A model generated the notes under the pieces. It was given only the letters and a program-made list of their open reading frames with translations, did no database searches and had not been told where the DNA came from. DNA of 64,000 bases from Patescibacteria group bacterium (lineage in GTDB: Bacteria; Patescibacteriota; Patescibacteriia; JBDRGY01): the NCBI GenBank assembly GCA_043817315.1, contig JBDRGY010000014.1, forward strand, positions 8,690-72,689. The letters run 5' to 3'. Position numbers and translations under genes: made by a program. Below are positions 12,303-54,116 of this stretch, piece after piece (the stretch's first letter is position 1; the number at the start of each line of letters is the position of its first letter).

Positions 12303-12379
12303 GGGCGGCTAGCTCAGCTGGTCAGAGCGTACGGTTCACATCCGTAAGGTCACAAGTTCGAGTCTTGTGCCGCCCACCA
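12303..12379 (+). tRNA. tRNA-Val (anticodon CAC)
   Basis: Manual cloverleaf: acceptor GGGCGGC/GCCGCCC, D-stem GCTC/GAGC, anticodon stem TACGG/CCGTA with loop TTCACAT, T-arm ACAAG-TTCGAGT-CTTGT, discriminator A, and an encoded CCA. Confidence 0.85.
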
Positions 12380-18500: not shown

Positions 18501-21500
18501 GATTACGATGGTGATGGCTTCGGCGATGATTGTCCTGATAGTGTTTGTGATTTAGAAACCAATAAATGTACCCCGGACGTTCTCGGCTTAAGTCCGGGAG
18601 ATGGTGCCCCCGGTACTTGTGTCACCATTCCCGGCTGTTATTTCGGGGAAAGCACCGGCACGGTTAAATATACCGATGACGTTACAGCAACTTCCATCAG
18701 ATGCCAGGACGATAATTGGCAGGATCACCAGATAGTTTCCGAAGTGCCAGAAGGAGCAAGTAATGGCTTAGTCACTATCAGGAAGCGAGATGGCCTAGAA
18801 GCTGATTCAGCACCTCAAGAGTTTACGGTTAACGCTACGGTCCGGCCCTGTCTCTGCCGCATTGCTCCAAGCAATGGTGAAGAACATGATAAACCAGAGT
18901 TTTACGGGTACGGATTCACCTCAGCAGCCGGAGATCAACTGGCTTATTACACCTCAGCAGCAGGTGGTTTTATAGAAGCTGCTACTTACGGTTCCTGGAC
19001 CGATACCAGAGCCAGCAACGTAGAAGTACCAGTAGGCGTAGCTGAAGGTGATAACCCAGCCAAGGTAACCATAGACGGCCTTGATAGTAATGAACTAGAT
19101 TTCGGCTTTGATCCTGGTTGGGGTCCTCCCTGCTCTTCAGATCCGGACCCGGCAATCTGTACTCCAGATGATGCTATGTGTCCAGTGGATTCTGAATGTC
19201 GTGATACCTATTGCACCTGTCGCTCCCTGCCCAGTTTGGCTTGCGATTCCCAGATAGCAGTAGCCGGTTGTCAGGAAGATGATACTTTGTGCCCGGTTGA
19301 CCATTATTGTGATGCTGCTGATTGTCTCTGCAAGGAAGGATCCGGTCCAGAAGGTGAAGAAGGTGATCCTTGCGATAGCGATGACAGTACGCCAGAATGT
19401 GATCCTGAGGATGCCTTGTGCAACCATGTTGATTTAGTGTGTAACCCTGGTAATTGCGAATGCCGCTGGAAACCGTTTGAGATGCTTCCTTTTTTGATGG
19501 ACGAGGGGTGTACTTCTTCTTTGGTGGTGTTTGAATTCAACCAAAGGGTGGATGCTGCTACAGCCACAGTTAAGGACGCAGATGATGAGTATATTAATAT
19601 TAGGATAGCCGATTTACTTACAGCAGAATATGTTCCGGGCCAACTATCAGTTTATGGCAAGAAGGTAATCTTTAACCCGGACGGATTATTTAAAGAAGAT
19701 GGTCGCTATCAATACGCGATTCAAGCCGGGCCAGGCGGAGTTCTCAGTGAACATGGTGGTGAATTGGAAGCTACCTATCAAGGTGCTTTTGACATTGAGG
19801 GTCCTTGTACTTTGAGTAAGATTAAATTTTTCATGAGTGATGAGCAGGAAGATAATTATGGACCGCCTGATCTTTTTACCTGTAATTATGATTCAGGCTG
19901 TGGGGATGATTTTGATGACGCGGCCACCGGTAACCAGCACGCCCTTTTGGGACTGGGATATGACAATGTAGGCAGAGTGGTCAGCGCGGACTTTACCAGC
20001 TTTGATCGCTATGCTGGAAGTGACGATGTGGTGGTCTGGAACGATCCTTCACCCGTAGCTCCGCCCCCCTCAACTAACCCCTTTTGGTACGGCTATATTG
20101 AGCCCAAATCCGGTACCGACATTGGCACTGCTCAGATAGATGTTGAAGCCACTGATGAGCCCTGGACACCGGTCGGAGAAGAGCCCAATGTGGTCAATAC
20201 CGCTTTTTCAGTGAAAGTCTTTATTTGTGAACATCCTTGGCCCACGGACACCTTCCCCTTTAGAGACCCGGCTCATAATTGGGAAACTTTCTATTGCATG
20301 GACGGTGGCTTGCCGGATTTTACAAACAGAACATCAGTGGTGCCACCTGATCCTGATATCTTGGGTGAATATTTATTAACCAAAGCGGAAGGGGCGGACG
20401 TTATTGGTATCCGGATGATGAAGAATTTTGAACACTATTCACCTTCCGAGTGGTACGCTAAGAAATTCGGGCCCAACACGGGACATCCTATGTCTCTTTC
20501 CATTGACGGTTACCAAGCAGTCAAAGATGGGCGCACAATTTATATCAACGGAGCTAATCTGGGAGGCACCCTTTATTCCAATATGTATATTATCTCCTAC
20601 GACGAAGAAGAGTCTAGTTGTAATATTGCCAAGAACCCCAGCTTTGAAAGCGGCCTGGACGATTGGTCCTCTCAGGGGGGCACGGTCACTATTGACAGCG
20701 GAGTGGGAGCTCAGATTGATGATTCTAGCTCCGTCAAACTGTATTCACCCAACGGTATCCAATCTTTTGTAATGCAGGAATTTGATAACCTAGAGATCGG
20801 AAAATCCTACACTATCTCTGGTTGGGTCAAGGCCGAGTTTGCCGCCAGCAACAAGGGTAGGGTAGGAATTATTACCCAATGTTATGGACTAAGGTGCGAC
20901 GATGGATCTAATGTTGGCAAAAAATGCAAGATTAATGATGACTGTCCCGACAGTAGCTGCGGCATGGGCATAGTCAATGACACTCAGTGCGGATTCCATA
21001 AGTCCTCTTATCCGCTTTGGGGTGATGCCGATGATATTATTCTGGTTAATGATGAAGAAAATGGGGGACATGGTTCCGTACTGCCTTGGACCAAGGTAAA
21101 TGTAACGGTCAAATACGATTCACCCGGGTATACTTTAAGAGTGCTCTGCGTTAATTCAACCACAGAGGCAGACACCGGTATAGCAGGAGGATCTGGTGAG
21201 GGCAATTCCTGGTGCGATTTTATCCAGCTAGAACCCAGAGGTTCTTGTAATCAGTCTTTTGTGCGACAAGTTTACGATGAATTGATAGACAACTGGGCCT
21301 TCAATACTAATGAGGGTAGTTTTGCCGAGGGAGCCCTGGGAGTGGCTCGGGTAAAAAGAGATATTGGTAGATTAGGCGATCTGATGTATGTCAGGAATCG
21401 TTTGATTGACTATGCTGTTATCAATAACAGCTACCCTGACCTGGAAGCCGGTTCCTATATGCGTAATATTTCTTCGTCTCTGTGGCCTTCTTGGCAAGCC

Positions 21501-21830
21501 CGACTGGGTAATGCTCTGGGCAAAGGTTTGCCGTCTGACCCTTTACAAACCACAGCCATTTGTGCCCCTCCATATGATACTGACACCTGCTGGGATGAAG
21601 AGGCCAAGATATTTACCTGTCCGGGAAATGTGTATTCCTATGGCTATCGGGCTTTTGATATCGAAGCCTCAGGCGCTCTCAGGAGCAAATTGTATGGTCA
21701 CCTGGAATATACTGCCGCTGGATGGCAAGATCCAGTCAGTAATTATTCCGGGGATCTTTGTCAGGATCGACAGTGCAGTGATGTTAGTTGTTTCAATAAA
21801 GAGATTAATGTTGGCGACATTACTTTATAA
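15558..21830 (+). CDS. Giant (2090 aa) surface protein: N-terminal VirB2/TrbC-like pilin domain, IPT/TIG domains, Cys-rich repeats and a C-terminal CBM4/9-like carbohydrate-binding domain
   Basis: N-terminus has two long hydrophobic helices flanking a short polar loop (VVLIVRWALGLLALVAVIFIIYGGYLWLSSRGNEEQVMKAKRVLRDAVIGIVIVLLAWAIV), like type IV secretion pilins. At least five IPT/TIG-like units (for example CTPEITGISPTEGYYTETNVTIDGYYLG and PFINWISPKRGGVGQYVTIKGENFGD). A Cys-rich segment (CTPDDAMCPVDSECRDTYCTC...). The C-terminal NPSFESGLDDWSSQGG...YTISGWVKAE is CBM4/9-like. Confidence 0.6.
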   Translation: MTGRNKIFQGILAGLFLSSLILAGSYFVLPETSLAGSIDMTVGGSLGYGPSDLLQTVVLIVRWALGLLALVAVIFIIYGGYLWLSSRGNEEQVMKAKRVLRDAVIGIVIVLLAWAIVTYIIGVVGNATNGEGGSSGCGLPDQCVHCDTWCNADGSTSYDPDNCHYLCNLPSSGFKVRWTQPRNDDENVTICTVIQAGFNETVNSSAASVNTGTFSIYPTGSPADIIDGTFTIVDKVIDFMPTDFLAINTAYTFKIEGVLNLDGEEVDPKTVYFTTGEEVDEIPPIVNLTDPIHDQGEVCTNTNIAAVFNEPIRVITVHDGAEDPEPSVRFFKNYDTAAELELPYRDNIHFPDASSFIAKPLDLPLDSFTDYSAYLVGGEISNAITDVCGNQLDGGGGPHFGGVPNGTVDPPDTDRYVWDFETGDNPECTPEITGISPTEGYYTETNVTIDGYYLGITGDVVFKNRVYDKQNCFDGEHYPTEDCVTQWFSTQIKIDTPVGSEDNGNIKVDNGFETATSEQTYQVLSPFINWISPKRGGVGQYVTIKGENFGDIKGNVWFRRPSDRAEVLGIFPPEAQCGVTWWNDKIIITVPPGFNVDDDLVIQVETAPVDPKWSNQKDFKFTDDPPGPGLCLVEPDCGSAGEEVSLYGEKFGDYEDGVTVVNYDEYQAAGYPGAGWSDQHIRAQSQASLANDGYTLRVFNAAGNSNPMPYDIPCGGAPYIINDTSCDPDLDLWPSPNPRPNSTDVCKNAVVNARFGPENQCIGGADEGETCTVDADCDSNQCGMEMNGGTLAGNVILEVCNAGGSFDATACADLGGTLTFYAPNQFTLDPAAAFVADTWYQATVNKEVESSTGAKMNSDYSWHFKIKEDGSDCPVAFVNLYDDGPDPVGEINYIIAAEGDNFEDYHAAPFAEDCTPLAAGGYTYLWSSFNTGVAQVAATTVPANKATAVANGYTYVKVETEGKSDRERLTVNYCDASTDCTDYDGDGFGDDCPDSVCDLETNKCTPDVLGLSPGDGAPGTCVTIPGCYFGESTGTVKYTDDVTATSIRCQDDNWQDHQIVSEVPEGASNGLVTIRKRDGLEADSAPQEFTVNATVRPCLCRIAPSNGEEHDKPEFYGYGFTSAAGDQLAYYTSAAGGFIEAATYGSWTDTRASNVEVPVGVAEGDNPAKVTIDGLDSNELDFGFDPGWGPPCSSDPDPAICTPDDAMCPVDSECRDTYCTCRSLPSLACDSQIAVAGCQEDDTLCPVDHYCDAADCLCKEGSGPEGEEGDPCDSDDSTPECDPEDALCNHVDLVCNPGNCECRWKPFEMLPFLMDEGCTSSLVVFEFNQRVDAATATVKDADDEYINIRIADLLTAEYVPGQLSVYGKKVIFNPDGLFKEDGRYQYAIQAGPGGVLSEHGGELEATYQGAFDIEGPCTLSKIKFFMSDEQEDNYGPPDLFTCNYDSGCGDDFDDAATGNQHALLGLGYDNVGRVVSADFTSFDRYAGSDDVVVWNDPSPVAPPPSTNPFWYGYIEPKSGTDIGTAQIDVEATDEPWTPVGEEPNVVNTAFSVKVFICEHPWPTDTFPFRDPAHNWETFYCMDGGLPDFTNRTSVVPPDPDILGEYLLTKAEGADVIGIRMMKNFEHYSPSEWYAKKFGPNTGHPMSLSIDGYQAVKDGRTIYINGANLGGTLYSNMYIISYDEEESSCNIAKNPSFESGLDDWSSQGGTVTIDSGVGAQIDDSSSVKLYSPNGIQSFVMQEFDNLEIGKSYTISGWVKAEFAASNKGRVGIITQCYGLRCDDGSNVGKKCKINDDCPDSSCGMGIVNDTQCGFHKSSYPLWGDADDIILVNDEENGGHGSVLPWTKVNVTVKYDSPGYTLRVLCVNSTTEADTGIAGGSGEGNSWCDFIQLEPRGSCNQSFVRQVYDELIDNWAFNTNEGSFAEGALGVARVKRDIGRLGDLMYVRNRLIDYAVINNSYPDLEAGSYMRNISSSLWPSWQARLGNALGKGLPSDPLQTTAICAPPYDTDTCWDEEAKIFTCPGNVYSYGYRAFDIEASGALRSKLYGHLEYTAAGWQDPVSNYSGDLCQDRQCSDVSCFNKEINVGDITL

Positions 21831-21849: not shown

Positions 21850-22629
21850 ATGCCAGAAGAAAATATAAACCACCCCCCAAAGCAAGTAGAAGATATTTTT
21901 GAAGATGTGGATCAAAGTCCAGTTGCGGCTGGACCTCCGCCAGCTCCACCAGTTTCACCAGCAGAACCAGTATCTACTCCACCCGCTCAGCCGATGTCAG
22001 CTCCAGCTGCCCCCAAACAAGATGTTGGTTTTCCCTCTCCTGTGGCGGGCGGAACTCCCAAACCACCCAAAATTCCTATGTCATCCGGGCTCAGATGGAT
22101 AATCATAATTGTGGTGGGTGTAGCCATAATCATTTTGGGCTTAGGTGTTTATTATTATTTTGTGAGACAGACTGAAAATGATAATATTAATAATGTTAAT
22201 GACAACCTTAACTCGACAACGGCCAGTGTCAATACCAACTTGAACACAAACCTAAACACCAATGTCAACGGGAATGTTAACCAGAACACCAATCAGACAG
22301 TTACCAATCTAAATCAAAACACCAACCTTAACATCAACACTAATACCAATGTCAATACTAATACCAACCTTAATGCCAACACCAACCAGGCCCCAGACCA
22401 AGATCAAGACGGATTGACTGATGCTGAAGAAAAGCAGTTGGGAACTGACCCCGAAGTTGTTGATTCAGACGGTGACGGGTTATATGATTATGAGGAAGTG
22501 AAAATTTATACCACGGATCCCTTGGACGCAGACACAGACGGTGATGGTTTCGAAGATGGTCAAGAAGTGCAAAATGGTTACAATCCCAAAGGTGATGGTA
22601 AAATTATAAATACCAACATTAATAGCTAA
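21850..22629 (+). CDS. Membrane-anchored protein with a Pro-rich N-terminus, an N/T-rich linker and thrombospondin type-3-like Asp-rich calcium-binding repeats
   Basis: TM helix IIIIVVGVAIIILGLGVYYYFV, NTNLNTNVN repeats, and DQDQDGLTDAEEKQLGTDPEVVDSDGDGLYDYEE...DADTDGDGFEDGQEVQNGYNPKGDG. Confidence 0.5.
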   Translation: MPEENINHPPKQVEDIFEDVDQSPVAAGPPPAPPVSPAEPVSTPPAQPMSAPAAPKQDVGFPSPVAGGTPKPPKIPMSSGLRWIIIIVVGVAIIILGLGVYYYFVRQTENDNINNVNDNLNSTTASVNTNLNTNLNTNVNGNVNQNTNQTVTNLNQNTNLNINTNTNVNTNTNLNANTNQAPDQDQDGLTDAEEKQLGTDPEVVDSDGDGLYDYEEVKIYTTDPLDADTDGDGFEDGQEVQNGYNPKGDGKIINTNINS

Positions 22630-22646
22630 ATAAAAGGAAAAAGATA

Positions 22647-24302
22647 ATGGCATTTTCTGATGAAAACAAACAAGATAGTCTAGGCTCCACTCCTCTAGGG
22701 CCCGGCCAGAGCGTCCAGCCCGATATTGAGGGAGGAGACTTTGAGCTTCCCACGCCCCCCAGCCAGGAAGATGATAGAGCAGAGGAACCGGTTCAAAGGG
22801 CAGCAGTTGGTACGGTTTCGGAGCCAATAATGCACACTATGCCCAGTAAGTTTTTATCAGGAAAGTCCAGCAAGGGAAGCGAGCAGAAGAAAAAGGGTTC
22901 ACCCAAGAAAATCATTATATGGGGCGCAATTATTTTTGTCGTCCTGGTTGGTCTAGTTTTGGGAGCCATCCTTCTGTTTAATAACGCAGTCAATACAAAT
23001 AACGTTAATAGTAATGTGACAGTTAATGCCAACAGCAATTCGACAGGTCAGTTGGATCGGGCAGCGGTGGTCAAGGAAATTGATGCCGACGATAGCCTGG
23101 CCGGCTATTTGTCGGACAATAACTGCATTTCGGTGAATGAAGATCTGAGCGGTTACATCGCCAAAATGGTAGAAGTGCGCTTGGGAATTATTAACGATTA
23201 TATTGCTTATGATGGTTCTGGTTTGTCAGTCAGCATGCTAAGAAGCTCTTATCCTACTGGCACTTTTATTTCCACATTTAAGTTGTATGCCAAAGGAAAC
23301 GGATACGAAGTTCCCGATATGGAAGATTTTTGGTATGTGGGCATGACCTTTGGTGATACCTGTAATAAACAAGTAGAAGTTTGGGTTGACCTCGACCAAC
23401 CTGACCAGGTCTATTACGGTGATTTGCACGATTCTGAGGATTGGATTATGACCAATGTCGGTACCAACACCAACACCAATCAGAATGTTAACGCGAATAG
23501 CAACATAAACCAAAACACTAATACCAATCAGAATAGTAATACCAACACCAACGTCAATCTAAATACCCCGGTTTCCGACAGCGAGGACACTGATAACGAC
23601 AGCCTGACCGATGTAGAGGAAATTGCCTACGGTACTCAGGACAATTTGCCCGATACTGATGGTGATGGTTACACCGATGGCACCGAGGTGCAAAATGGTT
23701 ATAACCCCAAAGGCAGCGGTTCTTTGTCCAGCTCTGATTTGGTTGAGACTTATACCAATGATGTCCAAAACTACACTATTTTGTATCCTCGCGCCCTCCT
23801 AGATCAACCTACCAGCGTAGAAACAAAAAAAGAAGTTGTTTTCTTGGCGCCTTCCGGCGAGTTTATTGAAGTAACGGTCCAAGATAACCCCTCTCAGCTG
23901 GCTGCCTCGGCCTGGTATATGGCTCGTAATCCAGGAGTCGATATGACTACTCTAGATAGTATTACCGTAAACGGGCTGAAGGGAATTCTCAGTCCTGATA
24001 AATTAGCTGCCTACTTGGCCCAAGATGAAAAAATCTTTGTCATATCATATGATCGAGGCACCAAGACAGAAATCGGCTATCGCACCACTTTCAAAATGAT
24101 GTATAAAAGTTTTGTGGCAGAATCAGTACCTATTAACAGCAATACTAATCAAAATCTGAATACCAATATTAATACCAATTCCAACAGCAATGTAAATACC
24201 AATACTAACAGTAATTCCAACACCAACACCAATACCAACACCAATACCAATACCAACACCAACTCAAACATTAATCAAAACAGCAACACTAATTCCTTGT
24301 AG
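22647..24302 (+). CDS. Membrane-anchored paralog-like protein with N/T-rich linkers, a globular domain and TSP3-like calcium-binding repeats
   Basis: TM helix IIIWGAIIFVVLVGLVLGAILLF, repeats DSEDTDNDSLTDVEEIAYGTQDNLPDTDGDGYTDGTEVQNGYNPKGSG, and a long C-terminal NTNTNTN tract. Confidence 0.5.
   Translation: MAFSDENKQDSLGSTPLGPGQSVQPDIEGGDFELPTPPSQEDDRAEEPVQRAAVGTVSEPIMHTMPSKFLSGKSSKGSEQKKKGSPKKIIIWGAIIFVVLVGLVLGAILLFNNAVNTNNVNSNVTVNANSNSTGQLDRAAVVKEIDADDSLAGYLSDNNCISVNEDLSGYIAKMVEVRLGIINDYIAYDGSGLSVSMLRSSYPTGTFISTFKLYAKGNGYEVPDMEDFWYVGMTFGDTCNKQVEVWVDLDQPDQVYYGDLHDSEDWIMTNVGTNTNTNQNVNANSNINQNTNTNQNSNTNTNVNLNTPVSDSEDTDNDSLTDVEEIAYGTQDNLPDTDGDGYTDGTEVQNGYNPKGSGSLSSSDLVETYTNDVQNYTILYPRALLDQPTSVETKKEVVFLAPSGEFIEVTVQDNPSQLAASAWYMARNPGVDMTTLDSITVNGLKGILSPDKLAAYLAQDEKIFVISYDRGTKTEIGYRTTFKMMYKSFVAESVPINSNTNQNLNTNINTNSNSNVNTNTNSNSNTNTNTNTNTNTNTNSNINQNSNTNSL
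24130..24298 (+). repeat. Hexanucleotide tandem repeat (AATACC/AACACC and variants) encoding poly(Asn-Thr/Asn-Ser)
   Basis: aataccaacaccaataccaacaccaataccaataccaacacc... Similar tracts occur at 22190-22390, 23461-23570, 5470-5525 and, on the minus strand, around 53650-53700. Confidence 0.6.
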
Positions 24303-27632: not shown

Positions 27633-27664
27633 ACTGAAAGTTTTTTGAGTCTTTCAGTTTTTTT
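27633..27664 (+). terminator. Rho-independent terminator after ftsZ
   Basis: Stem CTGAAAG...CTTTCAG followed by TTTTTTT. Confidence 0.5.
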
Positions 27665-27680
27665 ACCGACTATTCTAACA

Positions 27681-29966
27681 ATGTCAGAGGCAATTACTCA
27701 GATTAGGAAGAGGGACGGCAGAGTAGTCCCTTTTGATCAGAAGAAGGTCTACGAAGCAATTCGTAAGGCTACAATTGGAGTTGGAAAAGAAAATAAAAGC
27801 CAGGCCAAAAAACTGTCCAAACAAGTTACAGAGCTGATGAAAGAACGGTATCAGGGGGGGGTAATTCCCACCGTGGAAAATGTGCAGGATGTAGTTGAAG
27901 AGATATTGATCAAGAATGAACAAGTGCAGATGGCCCGGGCTTTTATTATTTATAGGCAGAAACACAAAGAAATCAGAGAAATGAAAGCCACTTTGGTAAC
28001 TGATGGTGAAAAAGTGTCAGCCACCTCTAATTCTCTAATTGTCTTGCGCAAAAGATATCTTAAAAAGGATGAAAACGGTAAGCCGACTGAAACCCCCGTA
28101 GATTTATTTAGAAGAGTAGCCAATAATATCGCTTTTGCTGATGAGATGTACAAGACTCTCTACAATCGTGATATAAATGTGGAAGAAACTGCTCGAGCCT
28201 TCTTTAAAATGATGGCCCACCTAGAATTTATGCCCAATTCGCCGACCCTAATGAATGCGGGTCGTGATTTGCAGCAGCTTTCCGCTTGTTTTGTATTACC
28301 GGTGGATGATTCCATAGAGGGAATATTTGAAACCATAAAAAATACAGCTTTAATACACCAATCAGGCGGGGGCACCGGCTTTTCCTTTTCCAGGCTGAGA
28401 CCCAGTGGTGATCGGGTAAAAAGCACCGGAGGTGTCGCCTCAGGACCGGTCTCCTTTATGAAAGTATTTAATTCGGCTACTGAAGCTATAAAGCAAGGAG
28501 GGACCAGAAGGGGAGCCAACATGGGAATACTGAAAGTAGAGCACCCCGATATTCTAGAATTTATTACATCCAAAGCTGACTGTAGCGAATTGAATAATTT
28601 TAACATCTCGGTAGCCCTGACTGACAAGTTTATGAAAGCCCTGGACAAAGATGAAGAGTACGAGCTGATCAATCCCTCCAACAAAGAGATAGCCGATAAA
28701 CTAAAAGCCTCCAAAGTTTTTGATCTAATAGTCGATGGAGCCTGGAAAAACGGTGATCCCGGAATCATTTTTTCCGATCGCATTAACCAGTTTAATCCCA
28801 CTCCGCAAGTAGGTGAGCTTGAATCTACCAATCCTTGCGGCGAACAGCCACTATTGCCTTTTGAATCCTGTAATTTGGGCTCAATCAATCTAGCCAAGAT
28901 GGTCTTGGGGGAAGAGATTGATTGGGAGAAATTAAGGAAGACTGTTCGCAAAGCCGTTCACTTCTTGGATAACGTCATCGATATGAGTCGTTTCCCTCTG
29001 GAAAAAATAGAAGAGATGGTGGAAAGAAATCGAAAGATCGGTCTGGGAGTGATGGGCTGGGCTGATATGCTAGTGCAGCTGGAAATACCTTACAATTCTG
29101 ACAAAGCCTTCAAAATTGCTGAGAAGGTCATGAAATTTATCGACGATACGGCCAAAGAGAAATCGTCTGAATTGGCTGAAGAGAGAGGAATCTTTCCCAA
29201 CTACCCTGGCAGTACTTATGACAAGAAGAAGGACGGGCGAAAAATGCGAAATGCCACAGTCACCACCATTGCCCCTACCGGTACTATTTCCATCATTTCC
29301 GGATGCAGCTCTGGGATTGAACCGTTCTTTGCCATTTCTTTTGTCAGGAAGAATTTATTGGACGAGGGAGATGAGCTGCTCGATGTTAATCCATATTTTG
29401 AGAGAGTAGCCAAGAAAGAAGGATTTTATTCGGAAGAATTGATGCGACGTATCGCTAAGAAGGGGACTATTCACGATTTCGAAGAGATACCAGAGAAATG
29501 GCGTAAAATATTTGTAACCGCTCATGACATTGCTCCTGAGGAACATGTTAAGATGCAAGCCGCTTTCCAAAAATATACGGATAATGCAGTTTCCAAAACC
29601 GTAAATTTTCCCCATGAAGCTACACCCGAAGATGTGCGCAAAGTTTATCTCCTGGCCTATAAATCAGGCTGTAAAGGAGTGACCATTTATCGAGACCGCA
29701 GTCGTGATTTGCAAGTATTAAACATTGAACATGGAGATGACAAGAAAGAGAAAGAAGCCCCGGTCCAGGTTCCTGAGGGAGATGAAGTGACTCTTGATGA
29801 GGTAGCTGTTCCTAAGGCACCGGACCTTAAAGTGAACAACAACAACCATGATCAGCCAATCGATGTTCATAAATTAAAAGTCTGCCCTGAATGCGGAACT
29901 GATCTGCAAATTGCAGAAGGTTGTATCACTTGCCCTTCTTGTGGTTATTCAGCTTGCAGTCTGTAA
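27681..29966 (+). CDS. nrdJ: Class II adenosylcobalamin-dependent ribonucleotide reductase with an N-terminal ATP-cone and a C-terminal zinc ribbon
   Basis: ATP-cone ([22 protein letters not shown]), the class II core ([17 protein letters not shown]) and a C-terminal CPECG...CITCPSCG. The ATG at 27681 is preferred because the track start at 27645 lies inside the upstream terminator. Confidence 0.85.
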
Positions 29967-29977
29967 GTATCTTTAAT

Positions 29978-30493
29978 ATGAAAAAAGGTCTAGTCCACAT
30001 TTATACAGGAAACGGAAAAGGAAAGACTACAGCTGCCCTGGGCTTAGCCTTAAGGGCCCTGGGACATAAACAGAAAGTTTGCCTGATTCAGTTTATGAAG
30101 AAGGGTAGTTACGGCGAACTGCGCTCCTTGCAGAAGTTACAGGGGATTACAATAAGACAGTTCGGCACCTCTCAGTTGATCAAAAAGGGCAAAGTAACTG
30201 ATAGAGACAAGAAAGAAGCAGCCGCCGCCCTTAGGTTCGCTGCCAAAACCATCAGTCAAAAGTTTGACCTGGTGATCCTAGATGAAATAATTGTAGCTAT
30301 CCACTTTGGACTGATAGAAGAGCCAAAGGTACTTGAGCTAATTAAGGAAAAACCAAAAACCCTAGAGTTGGTCTTGACAGGACGTAAAGTTTCTGCTAAG
30401 ATAATATCTACCGCTGATTTAGTGACGGAAATGAAGGAAATCAAGCATTATTACCGCCAAGGAGTTACCGCCAGAAAGGGCATAGAATACTAG
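29978..30493 (+). CDS. cobO: Cob(I)alamin adenosyltransferase, CobA/CobO/BtuR family
   Basis: P-loop VHIYTGNGKGKTTAALGLALRALG. The ATG at 29978 is preferred over the track start at 29921, which overlaps the nrdJ 3' end. Confidence 0.75.
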   Translation: MKKGLVHIYTGNGKGKTTAALGLALRALGHKQKVCLIQFMKKGSYGELRSLQKLQGITIRQFGTSQLIKKGKVTDRDKKEAAAALRFAAKTISQKFDLVILDEIIVAIHFGLIEEPKVLELIKEKPKTLELVLTGRKVSAKIISTADLVTEMKEIKHYYRQGVTARKGIEY

Positions 30494-30509
30494 CATCATT
30501 AACAAATAA

Positions 30510-30685
30510 GATAAGGGAAACCGGTGTATCCTGTCATTCGGCAGGAGAGTCCGGTGCGGTCCCGCCACTGTAATCTCGTCTCTTCCTGGGAGGGAAGGAG
30601 GAACCCATTAACCAGCAAGCCACTGTCCGCTCCAGGCGGATGGGAAGGCGGTTAAAGGGACGGGGAAGCCAGGACACCTAAGTTT
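30510..30685 (+). promoter_or_regulatory. Cobalamin (B12) riboswitch aptamer
   Basis: AAGGGAAACCGGTGTATCCTG, then GGTGCGGTCCCGCCACTGTAATC (the conserved CCCGCCACUGU core), then a B12-box-like GAAGCCAGGACACCTAAG, which is the RF00174 arrangement. A decisive test is cmsearch with RF00174. Confidence 0.7.
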
Positions 30686-30696
30686 TTCTCTCTACC

Positions 30697-30755
30697 TTCG
30701 GTCGAAAGGTAAAGCAATTTAGAGACCTTGCTTAAACCGAAGTAAGGTTTTTTTA
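30697..30755 (+). terminator. Riboswitch expression platform: alternative hairpins ending in a terminator-like stem plus U-tract
   Basis: TACCTTCGGTCGAAAGGTA hairpin. CTTCGGT can alternatively pair with ACCGAAG, which is followed by GGTTTTTTT. Confidence 0.4.
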
Positions 30756-30768
30756 AAGGATTAAAGAA

Positions 30769-31233
30769 ATGAAACACAATCTGAAATTTCTCTTTATCAC
30801 TGTCATTGTAGCTGCTGCTGGTTTGGCTGTTATCGGAGGAACCAGTATTCAGGTTAGCAATCAATTAGCAACACTGGTTGACGATGAAGTCGGCCCAATC
30901 GGGGCAGTTGCTGGAGCAGCTGTCAAGGGCCAAGCCAGCTTTATCATCAACTTTGGTGACAAGAGTCGCAGTTTCCAGTTTGAGGTGGATCAGAAAACAA
31001 CTGCCTATCAGTTATTACAAAGGGCCAGCATCAGAGAAAACCTGGTTTTAGAAACTGAAGAGTATAAGGATCTGGGCACAATCGTTGACGGCATCAGCGA
31101 TTACAAAGGCGGCCAAGATGACAATTACTGGATACTGTATGTCAATGGTAAAATGGCCCAAGCTGCTATTGATAAAACCATGGTCAACCCCGACGACAAA
31201 GTGGAACTACGATTTGAACCGAGTCCCTATTAA
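30769..31233 (+). CDS. Secreted DUF4430-like (transcobalamin-like) putative B12-binding protein
   Basis: Signal peptide. The C-terminal YWILYVNGKMAQAAIDKTMVNPDDKVELRFE matches the DUF4430 pattern. It lies directly downstream of the B12 riboswitch. Confidence 0.5.
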   Translation: MKHNLKFLFITVIVAAAGLAVIGGTSIQVSNQLATLVDDEVGPIGAVAGAAVKGQASFIINFGDKSRSFQFEVDQKTTAYQLLQRASIRENLVLETEEYKDLGTIVDGISDYKGGQDDNYWILYVNGKMAQAAIDKTMVNPDDKVELRFEPSPY

Positions 31234-31250
31234 TATTTAAATCGGAGGAA

Positions 31251-31814
31251 ATGATAAATAAAAACAAGCTAATTTTTTCTATCGCCATCATTATCTTTGC
31301 GGTACTATCCCGCATTCTGTTGCGCGATATCCCCAACATAGAAACTATCACTATTACCGCCTTGCTGGCCGGTTCTATTTTAGGCGGAGCCTATGCAGTA
31401 GTAATTCCTCTATCGGCCATTGCCCTAACTGATATCTGGATCGGCAATAATTCTATTATGCTTTTTACTTGGTCGGCCTGGGCCCTAATCGGGCTGATTG
31501 GTTTGATAGCCAAGAAGGACAGAAAAGATTCTTTTAAATACGCTTTCAAATTAACCGGGCTGGGAATGGGTGCCTCGTTGCTTTTTTATTTATGGACCAA
31601 TTTCGGAGTCTGGCTAATGTGGCCCCAGATGTACCCCACTACTTTATCTGGTTTGGGCCAGTGTTATATCATGGGCTTACCATTTCTGAGATACAGCCTA
31701 ATCAGCAATCTTATTTTTATTCCGAGCGTTTCTTTTTGTCTGGTAGCCTGTTTCAAATGGCTGAAGGTTAGAAACAAACTGCCCGAATTAGTTAAATCTA
31801 AAAGAGATATCTAG
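31251..31814 (+). CDS. Small polytopic membrane protein, possible ECF-type S component for cobalamin or a precursor
   Basis: 187 aa with 5-6 TM helices, co-transcribed behind the riboswitch-controlled DUF4430 gene. The assignment is from context only. Confidence 0.3.
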   Translation: MINKNKLIFSIAIIIFAVLSRILLRDIPNIETITITALLAGSILGGAYAVVIPLSAIALTDIWIGNNSIMLFTWSAWALIGLIGLIAKKDRKDSFKYAFKLTGLGMGASLLFYLWTNFGVWLMWPQMYPTTLSGLGQCYIMGLPFLRYSLISNLIFIPSVSFCLVACFKWLKVRNKLPELVKSKRDI

Positions 31815-31816
31815 TT

Positions 31817-32986
31817 ATGCTAAAGAAGAGAGACAATAATAGTGTTTTAGTTTTAGCCCTGATAATCAGTTTTGTAGTAGGGGGGGTATCGGGAGGTGTT
31901 ATCGGATCTCTTACTTCAGGTGTTTTTACAGCCAATAATCAGACCACTACCTCGACCAACAAACAGGTAACTGTTCAAGAAAATTCAGCTACAATCGACG
32001 TAGTTAAAGCAGTTAGCCCCTCGGTGGTTAGTATTGTTATAAGTAAGGACCTGAGCGAAATTTATAGCTTAAATGATCCCTTTGGTTTTTACTACGGATA
32101 TGATATACCCCAAGGACAAACTGAAATAGGGGGAGGAACCGGCTTTATCATCAGTTCCGATGGATTAATCTTGACTAACAGGCATGTGATATCCGACACC
32201 GAGGCAGATTATACAGTGATTACCAACAGTGGGGATAGCTATGAGGCAACTGTTATTGGTACGGACCCTTTTAATGATATTGGAGTGGTTAAGATTGAAG
32301 CTCCCGGATTGGTTCCAGTTCAACTGGGGGATTCAAATGATATCCAGATCGGCCAAACAGTGATTGCCATAGGAAACGCCCTGGCTGAATATAGCAACAC
32401 AGTAACCCGGGGAGTGATTTCCGGTATTAACAGAACTATCACGGCAGGTGACGCCTCGGGCCAGTCTGAAGTTATAGAAGAAGCGATTCAGACTGATGCC
32501 GCTATCAATCCTGGTAATTCAGGCGGTCCTTTGCTTAACATAGAGGGTCAAGTGATTGGTATAAATACAGCCATTAATCAAGCAGGGGAGGCGGTTGGTT
32601 TTGCCATCCCTATCAACGTGGCCAAACCGGTAGTTACCAGTGTAGAACTGTACGGGAGAATCATCAGGCCGATGCTGGGAATTCGTTATCGAGTAATCAC
32701 TTCGGAATTAGCTGAGGCCAATGAATTGTCAGTAGATTACGGAGCCCTCCTAATAACTGGTGATAGCCCGGCCCAAGTAGCGGTTTTACCTGATAGCCCG
32801 GCAGACCTGGCCGGATTAAAAGAGGGTGATATCATTTTAGAGTTTAACGAGCAGCGGATTGACAGCGACAATACCATTGGTGATGAGATTGCCAAATATC
32901 AAGTAGACGAGCAGATAACCCTGAAAGTGCTACGAGATGGCCAGGAATTTGAAGTTAAAGTTACTTTGGCAGAATACGATTTCTAA
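31817..32986 (+). CDS. htrA: HtrA/DegP-family serine protease with a PDZ domain
   Basis: Trypsin-like catalytic triad context (TNRHV, D, GNSGGPL) and a C-terminal PDZ domain. Confidence 0.8.
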   Translation: MLKKRDNNSVLVLALIISFVVGGVSGGVIGSLTSGVFTANNQTTTSTNKQVTVQENSATIDVVKAVSPSVVSIVISKDLSEIYSLNDPFGFYYGYDIPQGQTEIGGGTGFIISSDGLILTNRHVISDTEADYTVITNSGDSYEATVIGTDPFNDIGVVKIEAPGLVPVQLGDSNDIQIGQTVIAIGNALAEYSNTVTRGVISGINRTITAGDASGQSEVIEEAIQTDAAINPGNSGGPLLNIEGQVIGINTAINQAGEAVGFAIPINVAKPVVTSVELYGRIIRPMLGIRYRVITSELAEANELSVDYGALLITGDSPAQVAVLPDSPADLAGLKEGDIILEFNEQRIDSDNTIGDEIAKYQVDEQITLKVLRDGQEFEVKVTLAEYDF

Positions 32987-33068: not shown

Positions 33069-34161
33069 ATGAAAGACCTGATAGAAAAAATTAAGGAGTT
33101 GCAGGAAAAAATCTCCAAATTACGGAGGTTACTTTGACCTTGCCAAGAAACAGACTGAACTGAAGGCTCTGGCTATAGAAATGAGCCAGCCTGATTTCTG
33201 GAATAACCCTCAGAAGGCCAAGTCAGTTTCCGAAAAGTTTAACCAGCTAGATGAGGAGGTCAACACTTGGAAAAAGATCGAGCAGGAAACAGATTCGTTG
33301 TTAGGGTTGGCTGAGACTTCGGAACAGGAAAGCGATGATTCGCTAAAAAAAGAGATTACCAGGAAATATCAAGAACTTAATAAGAAATTCAATGACTTAG
33401 AATTTCTTATTTTATTATCCGGCCCCTATGATTCTCATAACGTAATCATGGCTATTCATGCCGGGGCCGGCGGAGTCGATGCCCAGGATTGGGCAGAGAT
33501 GCTGCTGCGTATGTTTTTGCGTTTTGCCGAAAAGAAAAAATGGCCGGTTACTGTATTAGACAAATCTAGCGGTGCCGAGGCTGGTCTCAAATCAGTTTCC
33601 TTAGAAATTAAAGGTCATTACGCCTATGGTTTTCTAAGGAGTGAGGCAGGTGTCCATCGCCTGGTGCGCATCTCTCCCTTTGATGCTGAAAAGATGCGCC
33701 ACACCTCTTTTGCCCTGGTGGAGGTTCTGCCCGAGCTGGAAGAGGTTAATGAAGTTGAGATCAAGCCAGAAGATTTGCGGATAGATGTTTTTCGCTCTTC
33801 AGGACACGGCGGGCAAAGCGTCAACACCACAGATTCGGCTGTTCGCATAGTGCATTTGCCAACTGAGATTACCGTGGTTTGCCGCAACGAGCGCTCCCAG
33901 TCTCAAAACAAGGAAAACGCCATGAAGTATCTAAAAAGCAAGCTACATAAGTTTTATTCGGAAAAAAAGCAGCAGGAGAAGCAGAAAATCAGGGGCGACT
34001 ATCAATCTGCGGAGTGGGGGAGCCAAATTCGCTCTTACGTATTACATCCCTATAAAATGGTTAAAGATCACAGAACCAATCAGGAAACGTCCGATGTTAA
34101 CAAGGTGCTAGATGGCCAAATTGACGACTTTATGGAAGCTTACCTCAGAAAACAACAATAG
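33069..34161 (+). CDS. prfB: Peptide chain release factor 2 with a programmed +1 frameshift at CUU UGA C (33132-33138)
   Basis: Frame 0 reads MKDLIEKIKELQEKISKLRRLL then TGA at 33135-33137. The +1 frame from 33136 continues DLAKKQTELKALAIEMSQPDFW... into the 326-aa ORF with the SPF motif and GGQ (SSGHGGQSVNTT). An SD-like CGGAGG precedes the slippery CTT TGA C. Confidence 0.85.
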
Positions 34162-41905: not shown

Positions 41906-42889
41906 ATGCCGATTATCGAAGTAAACAATCTAACTAAGAAGTTCAAATCGTTGGTGGCCGTCAATGACGTATCCTTTACTGTAAGCCAGGGAGAGATATT
42001 TGGTTTTTTGGGACCCAACGGAGCGGGCAAGACAACCACTATCAATATCTTAACCACCTTGCTGCAACCAACATCAGGATCGGCCACTGTCAATCAGTTT
42101 GATGTGGTCAAAAACAAAGAACAAGTCAGAGAGAGTATTGGTTTGATTTTTCAGGACCCCTCATTGGATGACAAACTGTCGGCCTTGGAAAATCTCAAAT
42201 TTCATGCTTGGCTCTACCGGGTGGATAAAGCCGTGCAACAGCAGAGGATGTCTGAGATGCTAAAGATGGTCGGCCTATATAGCAGAAAGAAAGATCGAGT
42301 GGATACCTTTTCGGGGGGGATGAAAAGGAGGCTGGAAATTGCCAGGGGACTTATCCATCACCCCAAAGTATTATTTTTAGACGAACCGACCATCGGCCTG
42401 GATCCCCAAACCCGTAATCATATTTGGGAATATGTCCTACAGTTGAGAGCCAGGGAGAATATTACTATGTTTTTAACCACCCACTACATGGATGAAGCTG
42501 AATACTGTGATCGGGTAGCAATTATCGATGAAGGTAAAATTATAGCCCTGGATACGGTGGCCAACTTGAAGAAGTTGATCGGCGGTGACGTTATTATTAT
42601 CAAAACCAGTGATAACCAAAAAGCCCAAGAAGAAATCCAGCAGAAGTGGCAATTGGAAGCCAAGCCCAAAGATGACCAGTTGATGATAAATAAACCGGGG
42701 GGCGAAAAGTTTATCCCCGACTTGTTTAAGAATATCAGTCCCGCCATTGAAAGTGTGGCCCTGCGGCAGCCGACTCTCAATGATGTATTTCTGAAATTAA
42801 CCGGCAAAGAAATTCGTGATGAAGAAGTTTCCAAGAAAGATAAAATGAAAAGACATTTAAAAATGAGAAGCAGGATGGGACCCCACTAA
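41906..42889 (+). CDS. ABC transporter ATP-binding protein
   Basis: Walker A GPNGAGKTT, signature SGGMKRRL and Walker B LFLDEPT. Confidence 0.85.
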   Translation: MPIIEVNNLTKKFKSLVAVNDVSFTVSQGEIFGFLGPNGAGKTTTINILTTLLQPTSGSATVNQFDVVKNKEQVRESIGLIFQDPSLDDKLSALENLKFHAWLYRVDKAVQQQRMSEMLKMVGLYSRKKDRVDTFSGGMKRRLEIARGLIHHPKVLFLDEPTIGLDPQTRNHIWEYVLQLRARENITMFLTTHYMDEAEYCDRVAIIDEGKIIALDTVANLKKLIGGDVIIIKTSDNQKAQEEIQQKWQLEAKPKDDQLMINKPGGEKFIPDLFKNISPAIESVALRQPTLNDVFLKLTGKEIRDEEVSKKDKMKRHLKMRSRMGPH

Positions 42890-42890
42890 G

Positions 42891-43709
42891 ATGAAACACC
42901 TCAAAGCAATTTATATTATTTGGTACCGGGATATCCTGCGCTACTGGCGCAACCGGGCCAGGATTATCACTTCCCTGGCCATGCCCTTCTTGTGGTTAGT
43001 GATGTTTGGTTCAGGAATTAAAGGTTCACTTTCTTTTGGTGCCGGGGGATTAGATGGAGCCAATTTTGACTACGTTCAGTTTCTCTTCCCCGGAGTGCTG
43101 GGCATGACTATTTTATTCACCTCTATCTTTGCCGCCATCTCTATAGTGACTGATCGGGAATTTGGTTTTATGAAAGAGATTTTAGTCGCTCCGGTTTCTA
43201 GGACGGCAGTGGCTTTGGGCAAGATCTTGGGTGGTTCGACCATAGCCATGGTTCAGGCTTCTCTGATGATGGTCTTAGCTCCTTTAGTCGGGGTGCAACT
43301 GTCCTGGGGGTTGGTGTTGGGCTTATTACCGGTAATGTTTTTGGTGGCTTTTTCCCTAAACTCGCTGGGGATTTTAGTGGCCTCTCGCCTCAAATCTACC
43401 GAAGCCTTTTCTATGGTAATGCAGTTTATTATGATGCCCATGTTTTTCTTGTCAGGAGCCCTTTTTCCGCTGAATAATTTGCCGGGCTGGATGACATTTT
43501 TGAGCAAAATAAATCCTGCTTCCTACGGTATAGATAGTTTGCGCCAGGTGGCCTTTAGGTATTTAGAGGTACCGGAGACGATAGCTGATTATTTCAAGAT
43601 GGAACTATTCGGCAATAAATTGAGCTTAGGATACGACCTATTGTTGGTGGGCGCCTTTGGTTTAGTGATGCTGCTGGCGGCAGTACTGGCCTTTCGCCGC
43701 AGTCAATAA
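42891..43709 (+). CDS. ABC-2 type transporter permease
   Basis: Six TM helices. Start codon overlaps the upstream ATPase gene stop (TAAGATG). Confidence 0.75.
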   Translation: MKHLKAIYIIWYRDILRYWRNRARIITSLAMPFLWLVMFGSGIKGSLSFGAGGLDGANFDYVQFLFPGVLGMTILFTSIFAAISIVTDREFGFMKEILVAPVSRTAVALGKILGGSTIAMVQASLMMVLAPLVGVQLSWGLVLGLLPVMFLVAFSLNSLGILVASRLKSTEAFSMVMQFIMMPMFFLSGALFPLNNLPGWMTFLSKINPASYGIDSLRQVAFRYLEVPETIADYFKMELFGNKLSLGYDLLLVGAFGLVMLLAAVLAFRRSQ

Positions 43710-51200: not shown

Positions 51201-51591
51201 GGAGATTCTTACCGGACCGGAAACCGGATCACCACACATTCAAACCTTTCAAATTAGGCCGGGTGAAATCAGACAACTCAATCCAGGTTTTTACGCATAT
51301 GACCCAGATTACAAAGGAGGAGTAGCAGTGACCGGTGGTGATATGGACGGTGACGGAGCTGATGAGATTATTGCTGGAGTGGGTGATGCCGCCTCTCCAC
51401 TGGTTAGATTGTTTTACAGTGATGGGTCCGGATATCTCCGTAAAGAGTTTTACGCTTATCCCACTACATTTTTATCAGGAGTCAATGTGGCCTCAGGTGA
51501 TGTTGATGGTGATGATATTGATGAAGTAATAACTTCTCCTCGGGCTGATGGGGGTCCTCAAATCAGGATTATTGAAGTTGATCGATTATAA
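48229..51591 (+). CDS. Secreted NHL-repeat beta-propeller / IPT-TIG / FG-GAP repeat protein (1120 aa)
   Basis: Signal peptide. Several NHL repeats (SGNFFVADTYNNVIRKI, SGNIYVADTANNAVRKI, YLYVSDTNNQRIRKV), an IPT-like domain (PTVTAVIP...RVRITGTNF), and at least five C-terminal FG-GAP/VCBS-like repeats (GDLNGDGYNEIITAPGPGG, GDVNGDGQDEIIVTAGPGG). Confidence 0.7.
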   Translation: MRKQLSFVVMISLIATFFPLTDSQATYGDVSKYLGHIYAGDGGTAAAAYFDFPEDIEVDSSGNFFVADTYNNVIRKISSAGTVSTLAGTGSYGLTNGATTAAEFALPRGITIDASGNIYVADTANNAVRKIAGSTVTTLVGEGLSAPEGLIIYGSTLYIADTGNDAIKSVSTAGGTVTTLAGSGLSSPKKLEVAADGSLLYVSDAGSYRVLKVNISTGTVSVLAGSGTAGYAEGTGTAAQFENIWGVELYGDYLYVADGDGFDDMIRKINVTTGETSSFATDSNMMAINFGAGLRVYNGYIYLCNQGIGTIHKFNVDDDSDNETFAGYERFGHRNGTNPLFGRPHDMAMTQDGTTFYLADNNKIRKIVKATGNTTYVTGSSVDNYREGLPVGAPGGIGAEARFSTIASVAVNNAGTALYLVDRWNNRVRKVDLSDPDYQTYLISGAGRINTTGTQRNGYQEGIKCDSVKNKDESFTKQSGCAYFDNPAGIVISPDNAYLYVSDTNNQRIRKVRIADGQTSLVAGSGTAGYLNGEATTAQFHTPYGLTIDANGDFLYVADRDNHVIRKIDTATGFVSTLAGKGSAGYLDAIGTSAYFSYPEYIKMGADGNLYVTEVGSQRVRVIDTVSGDTRLVAGSGYRGYKNGAKEEAEFNNPEGLVPDTANNSVYVLDSWNDVIRQVDIEGEIPHTEPAPTVTAVIPDFVEPKWDDGSGLRVRITGTNFRHGAVTHFYTYQASATYVVSDTELVAELPLSQMSAGYYDVTVTNLDGQAAYLSKGIGISDNLGNVPGEHFSVPGAETEEATEVSIAPGNSFYAYSETIRGGFYVAVGNVQGDGREEILTGTGIGLGPQVRIFDLEGGLKTTFFAYAEHLRSGVRVAVGDLNGDGYNEIITAPGPGGRPHIRTFSGDGQALNAGFFALDGQFQGGAFVACGDVNGDGQDEIIVTAGPGGGPHVTVHNGDGDLLATFFAYDQHTFRYGIRPAVLDVDGDGHMEILTGPETGSPHIQTFQIRPGEIRQLNPGFYAYDPDYKGGVAVTGGDMDGDGADEIIAGVGDAASPLVRLFYSDGSGYLRKEFYAYPTTFLSGVNVASGDVDGDDIDEVITSPRADGGPQIRIIEVDRL

Positions 51592-54038: not shown

Positions 54039-54116
54039 GGACCGGTGGTGTAGCCCGGTTAACACGCCTCCCTGTCACGGAGGAGATCGAGGGTTCAAAT
54101 CCCTTCCGGTCCGCCA
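54039..54116 (+). tRNA. tRNA-Asp (anticodon GUC)
   Basis: Acceptor GGACCGG/CCGGTCC, D-stem GTGT/ACAC, anticodon stem CCTCC/GGAGG with loop CTGTCAC, T-arm GAGGG-TTCAAAT-CCCTT, discriminator G, and an encoded CCA. Confidence 0.85.

Follow-up and report, generated by a model that had tools for sequence, protein, structure and literature searches.

In a 64-kb stretch of contig JBDRGY010000014.1 (hereafter the window), part of a metagenome-assembled genome from Patescibacteria (Candidate Phyla Radiation, CPR), the genes for a class II ribonucleotide reductase (nrdJ) and a cobalamin adenosyltransferase (cobA) are followed by a cobalamin riboswitch and by the genes for a DUF4430 protein and a DUF6580 membrane protein. 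We conclude that these parts very probably constitute a self-contained salvage module for vitamin B12 (corrinoids). A first-pass annotation of this DNA had proposed that the riboswitch controls a transcobalamin-like binder and a small membrane transporter beside nrdJ and the adenosyltransferase gene, and family assignments together with comparative genomics bear this out. All of the elements that it described were found, no more than a few bases from the positions given and well above chance levels, as five features that succeed one another head to tail in one direction between 27.6 and 31.8 kb.

In the pathway that we propose, the DUF4430 protein, a lone transcobalamin beta-domain anchored in the membrane, would capture a corrinoid at the cell surface and hand it to the DUF6580 protein, a translocator of six helices with the fold of an energy-coupling factor (ECF) S-component, through which it would cross the membrane. 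CobA would then adenosylate the corrinoid, both trapping it inside the cell and making the cofactor, and NrdJ would use the resulting adenosylcobalamin (AdoCbl) for deoxyribonucleotide synthesis. When ample, AdoCbl would bind the riboswitch, a terminator composed of a hairpin and seven U residues (U7) would form and transcription would end before the DUF4430 and DUF6580 genes; nrdJ and cobA, lying 5' of the switch, would remain expressed at high AdoCbl.

To place the module in context, we compared 80 loci that contain relatives of DUF6580, from a scan at one genome per species. Neighbouring genes were counted by clustering open reading frames (ORFs) over these loci, with families named through Pfam, and riboswitches were counted from Rfam scans of all 80. 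Most of the loci come from CPR (Kerfeld-, Gottesman-, Falkow-, Beckwith- and Dojkabacteria, Saccharibacteria and Paceibacterota), with one from a DPANN archaeon and four from Actinobacteria. A DUF4430 gene lies immediately upstream of DUF6580 on the same strand in 61 of the 80, nrdJ is present in 45, an adenosyltransferase gene in 43 (CobA in 30, PduO-type in 13) and NrdR in 24; 53 loci have at least one link to B12. Cobalamin-clan riboswitches, 21 in total, were detected in 20 loci, all on the strand of DUF6580.

The pair corresponds to CbrS and CbrT of Lactobacillus

The CbrT system was reportedly predicted by Rodionov in 2009. In Lactobacillus, CbrT is encoded within an nrdJ-cbrS-cbrT-pduO cluster, and ECF-CbrT is an experimentally proven B12 transporter (Santos et al. 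2018; PMC5997447). Because a Lactobacillus helveticus locus with a CbrT orthologue reads NrdJ-DUF4430-CbrT-PduO (a class II ribonucleotide reductase, a DUF4430 protein of 136 aa, CbrT of family PF12822 and a PduO-type adenosyltransferase), we identify 'CbrS' as the DUF4430 protein. The DUF4430-DUF6580 pair of the window corresponds to cbrS-cbrT, which gives the system a clear precedent.

In the window the four-part module recurs, its adenosyltransferase being of CobA type and its S-component of DUF6580 type. It shares with the Lactobacillales CbrS-CbrT system both gene content and logic, namely a class II ribonucleotide reductase, a DUF4430 protein, a protein of S-component fold and a cobalamin adenosyltransferase. 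The adenosyltransferase differs, as the Lactobacillus cluster uses PduO and the window a CobA-type enzyme; Gottesmanbacteria-type loci also use PduO. In addition, the window has a riboswitch inside the cluster, a contrast that is one-sided because the Lactobacillus loci (L083 and L084) lay outside the riboswitch scan.

DUF6580 is a distant relative of CbrT

The DUF6580 gene (31251..31814, + strand) encodes a 187-aa protein that matches PF20221 at 116 bits; with 100% identity, it also appears in NCBI as 'DUF6580 family putative transport protein [Patescibacteria group bacterium]'. Searches with phmmer using the single DUF4430 and DUF6580 proteins returned no match among PDB sequences, so profiles were needed; likewise, no NCBIfam model matched either protein. 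A profile of 31 DUF6580 family members matched chain A of 6FNP (CbrT, 182 aa) nearly end to end (E 0.003), this structure being the ECF-CbrT vitamin B12 transporter of Lactobacillus delbrueckii (PMC5997447). Aligned by hhalign with 21 Lactobacillales CbrT homologues, DUF6580 scored a probability of 96.3% (E 1.7e-9, 157 columns). The two families are thus homologous over ~157 residues and have in common an R..(D/P)IPNV(E/Q).VT motif and a conserved GNL motif near the C terminus.

Structure prediction points the same way. An AlphaFold2 (AF2) model built on the 31-member family alignment has a pLDDT (predicted local distance difference test) of 94.2 and a pTM (predicted template modelling score) of 0.87, and among PDB entries its top matches by Foldseek are without exception S-components, namely ThiT, RibU, FolT and PanT (probabilities 0.9-0.99) together with BtuM (8c7p), a solitary B12 transporter, at template modelling scores of 0.64/0.66. 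The model has 6-7 helices. With its S-component fold and its remote homology to CbrT, the 187-aa protein for which the first-pass annotation had given 5-6 transmembrane helices is no orphan.

The window protein matches PF20221 only and so falls outside PF12822 (ECF_trnsprt), the family that CbrT matches at 51 bits. The two Pfam families nevertheless grade together: several CbrT relatives match both (P0201, P0202, P0237 and P0242 grade into PF20221), and one relative that is 37% identical to CbrT matches PF20221 only. Some relatives of DUF6580 likewise match both. Judged from these alignments, DUF6580 forms a separate and remote branch within the CbrT lineage, and the window protein is a predicted corrinoid translocator. 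The family is large, with 4,760 representatives at 50% identity (E<=1e-3). In the literature we found no account of DUF6580, nothing on ECF transporters in Patescibacteria and nothing on CbrS beyond Santos et al. 2018.

Three archaeal contigs that carry MCM (L085-L087) also encode a DUF4430-DUF6580 pair (at ~7337-8657, with a faint DUF4430 match), without nrdJ or an adenosyltransferase gene nearby. Their DUF6580 member shares 37% identity with Lactobacillus CbrT and forms a link between PF20221 and PF12822.

A further point of comparison is BtuM, a solitary S-component B12 transporter of Proteobacteria that pairs with btuR and for which metabolic trapping has been proposed (Rempel et al. 2018; PDB 6FFV/8C7P; PMC6072759). 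Both BtuM-BtuR and the window module place a small protein of S-component fold beside a CobA/BtuR-type adenosyltransferase, with no ECF module nearby. BtuM, however, ligates cobalt through a Cys, and it works behind the outer-membrane protein BtuB without a DUF4430 partner. We rejected membership of DUF6580 in the BtuM family, as the DUF6580 profile gave no BtuM match at E<=10 and the 31 aligned DUF6580 sequences contain no invariant Cys or His.

The DUF4430 protein is a predicted corrinoid binder

The gene upstream of DUF6580 (30769..31233, + strand) encodes a CbrS-like DUF4430 protein of 154 aa (SLBB, transcobalamin beta-domain-like), which matches PF14478 at 33.8 bits (cutoff 23.8). By inspection, residues 7-24 form an N-terminal hydrophobic segment. 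Lipoboxes occur in many of the orthologues; the window copy contains no Cys, and is therefore expected to be signal-anchored or secreted. Because the protein diverges quickly, and a homologue search with the window copy gave only 2 close relatives, orthologues were drawn from syntenic loci and a profile was made from the alignment of 44 of them. This profile matched the isolated beta-domain of human transcobalamin (5NO0) at E 6.4e-5, and also haptocorrin, full-length transcobalamin, intrinsic factor and the bacterial DUF4430 structure 3U7Z (also 4kki, 4zrp and 3kq4), with E values over the beta-domains ranging from 6e-5 to 1e-3. The sole invariant residue of DUF4430, W121, aligns with the Trp of the 'FWQL' loop of transcobalamin. 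A single-sequence AF2 model of the DUF4430 protein had a pLDDT of 34 and was not used. The PF14478 score, the hydrophobic anchor and the beta-domain matches agree with the first-pass view of a secreted, transcobalamin-like DUF4430 protein, and its reading of the two downstream ORFs as DUF4430- and S-component-like held for both.

The isolated transcobalamin beta-domain binds cyanocobalamin and cobinamide on its own (PMC5599065), and bacterial transcobalamin-like SLBB proteins have been predicted to scavenge B12 in non-producers, with the wording 'B12 or its precursors' leaving the ligand open (Burroughs et al. 2007; PMC1796856). By analogy, the DUF4430 protein is predicted to bind corrinoids outside the cytoplasm. 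It resembles transcobalamin, intrinsic factor, haptocorrin and bacterial SLBB surface proteins in its match to the beta-domain profile, its invariant Trp and its secreted or anchored state. Unlike transcobalamin, it consists of a beta-domain alone, without the alpha/alpha-toroid alpha-domain, and unlike the SLBB operons described by Burroughs et al. 2007 its partner is a lone S-component gene and not an operon containing CbiO/CbiQ.

Other domain layouts were seen among the relatives. Directly behind an AdoCbl riboswitch, L006:3163-4995 encodes a fusion of DUF4430 with a prenyltransferase-like alpha/alpha toroid, which gives the complete transcobalamin-like arrangement of two domains. A member of the DUF4430 cluster at L035:2365-4641 has a weak, sub-threshold toroid match and no Pfam DUF4430 match, and two proteins (L038:4995-5933 and L064:5138-5995) are fusions of DUF4430 to DUF5667. 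An apparent DUF4430-DUF6580 fusion in Actinobacteria (L081, 356-aa ORF) was rejected as a GC-rich upstream read-through.

NrdJ and the adenosyltransferase

The ribonucleotide reductase gene, nrdJ (27645..29966, + strand; 773 aa), was assigned with NCBIfam and Pfam as class II, that is, AdoCbl-dependent. Its product exceeds the equivalog cutoffs of both NF006417, 'vitamin B12-dependent ribonucleotide reductase' (1051.5 bits, cutoff 961), and TIGR02504, NrdJ_Z (747.8 bits, cutoff 399.95). The Pfam domains comprise an N-terminal ATP-cone, Ribonuc_red_lgN and lgC, and a Zn-ribbon lies at the C terminus. An alternative start, ATG 27681, is internal to the same ORF.

The next gene (29978..30493, + strand) encodes a cobA/btuR-type ATP:cob(I)alamin adenosyltransferase of 171 aa with a P-loop, GNGKGKTT. 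It matches PF02572 (CobA_CobO_BtuR) over the whole profile (1-172 of 172) at 215.3 bits, and falls marginally under the cutoffs of two NCBIfam models, TIGR00708 cobA (163.3 bits, cutoff 167.75) and NF004637 (179 bits, cutoff 185). Both enzymes had been named in the first-pass annotation and both assignments stand. Its claim that the two genes overlap does not, as an overlap needs one of two upstream TTG codons (29921 or 29930) as start, and the longer versions are not conserved; the overlap is probably an artefact of ORF extension. Since the Pfam domain opens at residue 2 of the product read from ATG 29978, and the nearest cobA orthologue (L003) has 171 aa and begins at the equivalent ATG, translation most likely starts at ATG 29978, 11 nt past the nrdJ stop.

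Within cobA, a sigma-70-like candidate promoter (30374..30402, + strand; TTGACA-17-TAAGAT, TG-extended, 10/12 match) lies ~70 nt 5' of the riboswitch aptamer. The region holds no more promoter-like sites than expected from shuffled sequence, and the assignment is suggestive only.

A riboswitch between the two pairs of genes

The leader of the DUF4430 gene contains a full-length cobalamin riboswitch aptamer, RF00174 (30471..30699, + strand), with the B12 box and the peripheral extension. The covariance model matched, as the first-pass annotation had anticipated for this region, and did so over its whole length (1-189 of 189), at 57.9 bits against a gathering score of 31.5 and with an E value of 9.3e-12 for the whole window. 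The aptamer begins inside the 3' end of cobA, 23 nt ahead of its stop codon, so that the 5' strand of stem P1 consists of cobA codons.

Between the aptamer and the DUF4430 gene lie two hairpins. The first, a small hairpin with the sequence UACCUUCGGUCGAAAGGUA (30693..30711, + strand), contains the conserved sequence CUUCGGUCGAAAG, which recurs at equivalent sites in otherwise divergent loci (L003, L025, L028, L041 and L061); it may belong to the expression platform or form a loop that kisses the aptamer. The second resembles an intrinsic terminator (30725..30754, + strand; 9 bp, -8.4 kcal/mol), with a stem of ACCUUGCUU/AAGUAAGGU and the loop AAACCG, followed by U7. After the U-tract comes a Shine-Dalgarno-like AAGGA (30756..30760), unpaired in the predicted fold, and then the ATG at 30769. 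A hairpin followed by T5-7 separates the aptamer from the first gene in 14 of 16 riboswitch-bearing loci (the window counted), despite sequence divergence. It is this conservation, and not the window sequence alone, that bears out the earlier proposal of a terminator-type expression platform.

The window switch shares with classical riboswitch-controlled uptake operons (the btuB leader and BtuFCD) the RF00174 aptamer, the B12 box, a full peripheral extension and an OFF-type platform, as predicted here, before uptake genes. It differs in its position between the genes for using and activating the cofactor, on the constitutive side, and the uptake genes, in the overlap of its P1 5' strand with the upstream coding sequence and in its cargo, which is DUF4430 and DUF6580 in place of BtuB or BtuFCD.

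Across the comparative set, 15 of the 21 riboswitches lie directly upstream of the (X-)DUF4430-DUF6580 operon, and 6 of 21 just downstream, before another ORF. The latter form a second class immediately 3' of DUF6580 (L036:6573-6627, L038:6496-6615, L064:6457-6588, L070:5946-6015, L071:6527-6685 and L074:3076-3147). In five of these six loci an orphan ORF of 300-659 aa follows, and L070 has no downstream ORF of at least 60 aa. Four of the orphan ORFs were scanned and matched no Pfam family, and the orphans showed no mutual similarity. On the L074 contig, from Patescibacteria, a group I catalytic intron match (RF00028, 67.8 bits; 4142-4328) lies ~1 kb downstream of DUF6580.

Recurrent neighbours at related loci

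Ten loci (L021, L026, L030, L033, L039, L046, L049, L051, L055 and L060) encode members of a protein family, 700-877 aa long, that match nothing in Pfam and lack an obvious signal peptide (for example, L030:2963-5449). In Gottesmanbacteria-type loci its gene sits between the PduO gene and DUF4430, and in L055 it is downstream of DUF6580 instead. Three of the ten (L030, L039 and L051) have a detected cobalamin riboswitch directly upstream of it, and we regard these proteins as a candidate, uncharacterized family under B12 regulation.

In a different group of CPR loci (L015, L017, L020, L052, L058 and L059), DUF4430-DUF6580 follows NusG and ribosomal protein L11, without nrdJ nearby. Two or three paralogous genes that resemble thymidylate synthase (PF00303, 53 bits) come 3' of DUF6580, which may be another link to nucleotide metabolism.

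In the window itself, DUF6580 is followed by a gene for an HtrA-like serine protease (Trypsin_2 and PDZ; 31817-32986). As this gene starts 2 nt past the DUF6580 stop, it is possibly co-transcribed under the riboswitch; same-strand recurrence is confined to the closest relatives (L003 and L031), and the adjacency is probably incidental.

Energy coupling and alternative explanations

The first-pass annotation had noted neither B12 biosynthesis genes in the window nor a BtuCDF or ECF module near the riboswitch, and both statements hold. Among the ORFs selected in the window (56, all read, of which ~45 were scanned with Pfam), there are no cob/cbi genes, no BtuCDF, no EcfT/CbiQ and no other B12 enzymes. 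The sole ATP-binding cassette (ABC) system (41906..43709) pairs a DrrA-type ATPase (345.6 bits, cutoff 312.45) with an ABC2_membrane permease and is for that reason taken to be an exporter; we accordingly rejected both BtuCDF and an ECF module for the window.

Association of S-components with EcfT requires an AxxxA motif in helix 1 (PMC11109136). Small residues occupy positions -10 and -6 from the conserved Arg in 99-100% of 81 CbrT homologues, whereas AxxxA occurs in 5 of 68 DUF6580 proteins. In helix 1 of DUF6580, two conserved small residues stand instead at -11 and -4, counted from its invariant Arg. The docking motif of CbrT thus appears to have been lost from DUF6580. Neither the window nor any of the 80 loci contained an ECF module, and none of the 7 ABC ATPases in the ~0.93 Mb of sampled locus sequence reaches the ECF-ATPase cutoff. 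For energy coupling, we slightly favour ECF-independent, BtuM-like facilitated uptake driven by metabolic trapping, to which we assign about an even chance. Nearly as credible, if somewhat short of even, is that the same module contains DUF6580 as a conventional group-II ECF S-component, which would dock to a shared EcfAA'T encoded elsewhere for ATP-driven uptake, as in ECF-CbrT. CbrT, the closest characterized homologue, is itself ECF-dependent with its module encoded elsewhere (PMC5997447), which weighs against ECF independence; the Lactobacillus nrdJ-DUF4430-cbrT-pduO cluster likewise has no adjacent ECF module; SLBB proteins are commonly encoded in operons with CbiO/CbiQ-like genes (Burroughs 2007; PMC1796856); and the -11/-4 residues of DUF6580 could form an alternative docking groove. 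That no ECF module was seen at the loci is uninformative here, because each locus samples ~1% of its genome. Opposed to ECF-dependent uptake are the scarcity in DUF6580 of a motif that is invariant in CbrT homologues and needed for EcfT association, the ATPases that all fall below the ECF cutoff and the lack of EcfT/CbiQ within the window. A bolder form of the ECF-independent reading is that DUF4430 and DUF6580 form an ATPase-independent, two-protein B12 importer, driven only by adenosylation (CobA or PduO) and NrdJ consumption, which serves as the principal cobamide route of CPR and also of some DPANN archaea and Actinobacteria; we rate this bolder form as less likely than not.

Cobalamin riboswitches also govern cobalt and precursor transporters in other bacteria, which counts in favour of a different substrate: the pair might import cobinamide, another incomplete corrinoid, a cobamide lacking dimethylbenzimidazole (DMB) or cobalt, and not complete cobalamin. 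Cobinamide is accepted by both CbrT (PMC5997447) and the transcobalamin beta-domain (PMC5599065), and Burroughs 2007 (PMC1796856) kept precursors in view. We nevertheless consider this quite improbable, as genes for corrinoid remodelling or nucleotide-loop assembly (cobS/U/T, cbiB/Z) are absent from the window and do not recur in the 80 loci, the conserved partners (an AdoCbl-using enzyme and an adenosyltransferase) need the complete cofactor, and DUF6580 resembles the metal S-components CbiM/NikM in the shared fold only. It would be more surprising still if the pair were not a transporter at all and acted as a membrane receptor or sensor, or as a device to retain B12 at the surface. The S-component fold does occur in non-transport proteins without AxxxA, such as sensor kinases (PMC11109136), but the window protein is a bare 187-aa S-component, signalling domains are neither fused nor adjacent to it, it has a subunit of a proven B12 transporter as a homologue, and riboswitch-OFF control beside a consuming enzyme is the classic signature of uptake genes. 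As to regulation, the switch might act on translation initiation, perhaps through a kissing loop that masks the ribosome-binding site, and not on transcription termination, or it might act on read-through from nrdJ-cobA, modulated by ribosomes that end at the cobA stop. The overlap of P1 with the final cobA codons and the weak, AU-rich terminator stem are compatible with this, as are two relatives, one (L044) in which the post-aptamer hairpin abuts the start codon without a T-run and another (L074) with just 26 nt from aptamer to ATG. The conserved hairpin and T-run, however, and an unpaired AAGGA placed beyond the U-tract make such control unlikely, and we retain transcription termination as the proposed mechanism.

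Several observations weigh against a B12 salvage module as we describe it. No B12-linked neighbour was found within ~6 kb in 27 of the 80 loci, so the DUF6580 family need not be uniformly B12-specific, and 60 of the 80 have no detected riboswitch. Identity between DUF6580 and CbrT is just ~20%, and the Pfam match of the window DUF4430 protein is confined to the C-terminal half of its domain. A simple terminator scanner missed the weak terminator stem. The roles suggested for DUF6580 and bacterial DUF4430 in corrinoid binding and transport are drawn from homology.

One of the sampled loci contains an ABC ATPase gene (L065:10102-10941, - strand) 4 kb from DUF6580 and on the opposite strand. The best similarity of its product, below threshold, is to ATPases of type-II importers for heme, metal and corrinoids (BtuD/FhuC-like).

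Other features of the window

Beyond the module, prfB (release factor 2; 33070-34161) has a canonical programmed +1 frameshift site, GGAGG then CUU UGA C (33131-33137), which explains why its ORF is seemingly N-truncated (326 aa). A gene for tmRNA (56446-56839, - strand; 119 bits) adjoins an SmpB-like ORF of 150 aa (56845-57297, - strand), and tRNA genes lie at 12303-12376 and 54039-54113. Large predicted surface proteins, typical of the surfaces of CPR episymbionts, are encoded at 5883-11021, 15558-21830, 21850-24302 and 48229-51591. They include a 1712-aa protein without a Pfam match, a 2090-aa protein with an N-terminal segment like a type IV secretion system (T4SS) pilin and Big_5/TIG/CBM domains, Asn/Thr-rich TSP3-repeat proteins and a 1120-aa NHL/FG-GAP protein.

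Implications for CPR bacteria

The module is of an already known kind, in that it is a riboswitch-controlled B12 uptake operon, linked to nrdJ and an adenosyltransferase gene, in which a transcobalamin-like protein partners an S-component transporter. What our comparisons add is the proposed assignment of DUF6580 to B12 uptake, the identity of CbrS as a DUF4430 protein, the broad use of the pair in CPR, DPANN and Actinobacteria, and the apparent loss of the EcfT-docking motif in DUF6580. Concrete functions can thereby be proposed for the DUF6580 family and for the bacterial 'CbrS'/DUF4430 partner, and both are thereby connected with a transporter family proven by experiment. Having lost AxxxA, DUF6580 is a good candidate for the study of S-components that work without an ECF motor. 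If the pair were indeed an ATPase-free importer, it would join BioY and BtuM as a third independent case of a solitary S-component that transports, and would be the first of them to have an extracellular partner of its own.

CPR bacteria, or Patescibacteria, are ultra-small and largely uncultured episymbionts that are unable to make most cofactors, and their acquisition of B12 for the synthesis of DNA precursors is essentially undocumented. If the B12 dependence of NrdJ is general in CPR lineages, their cultivation could be controlled in part through the B12 that host or community supplies.

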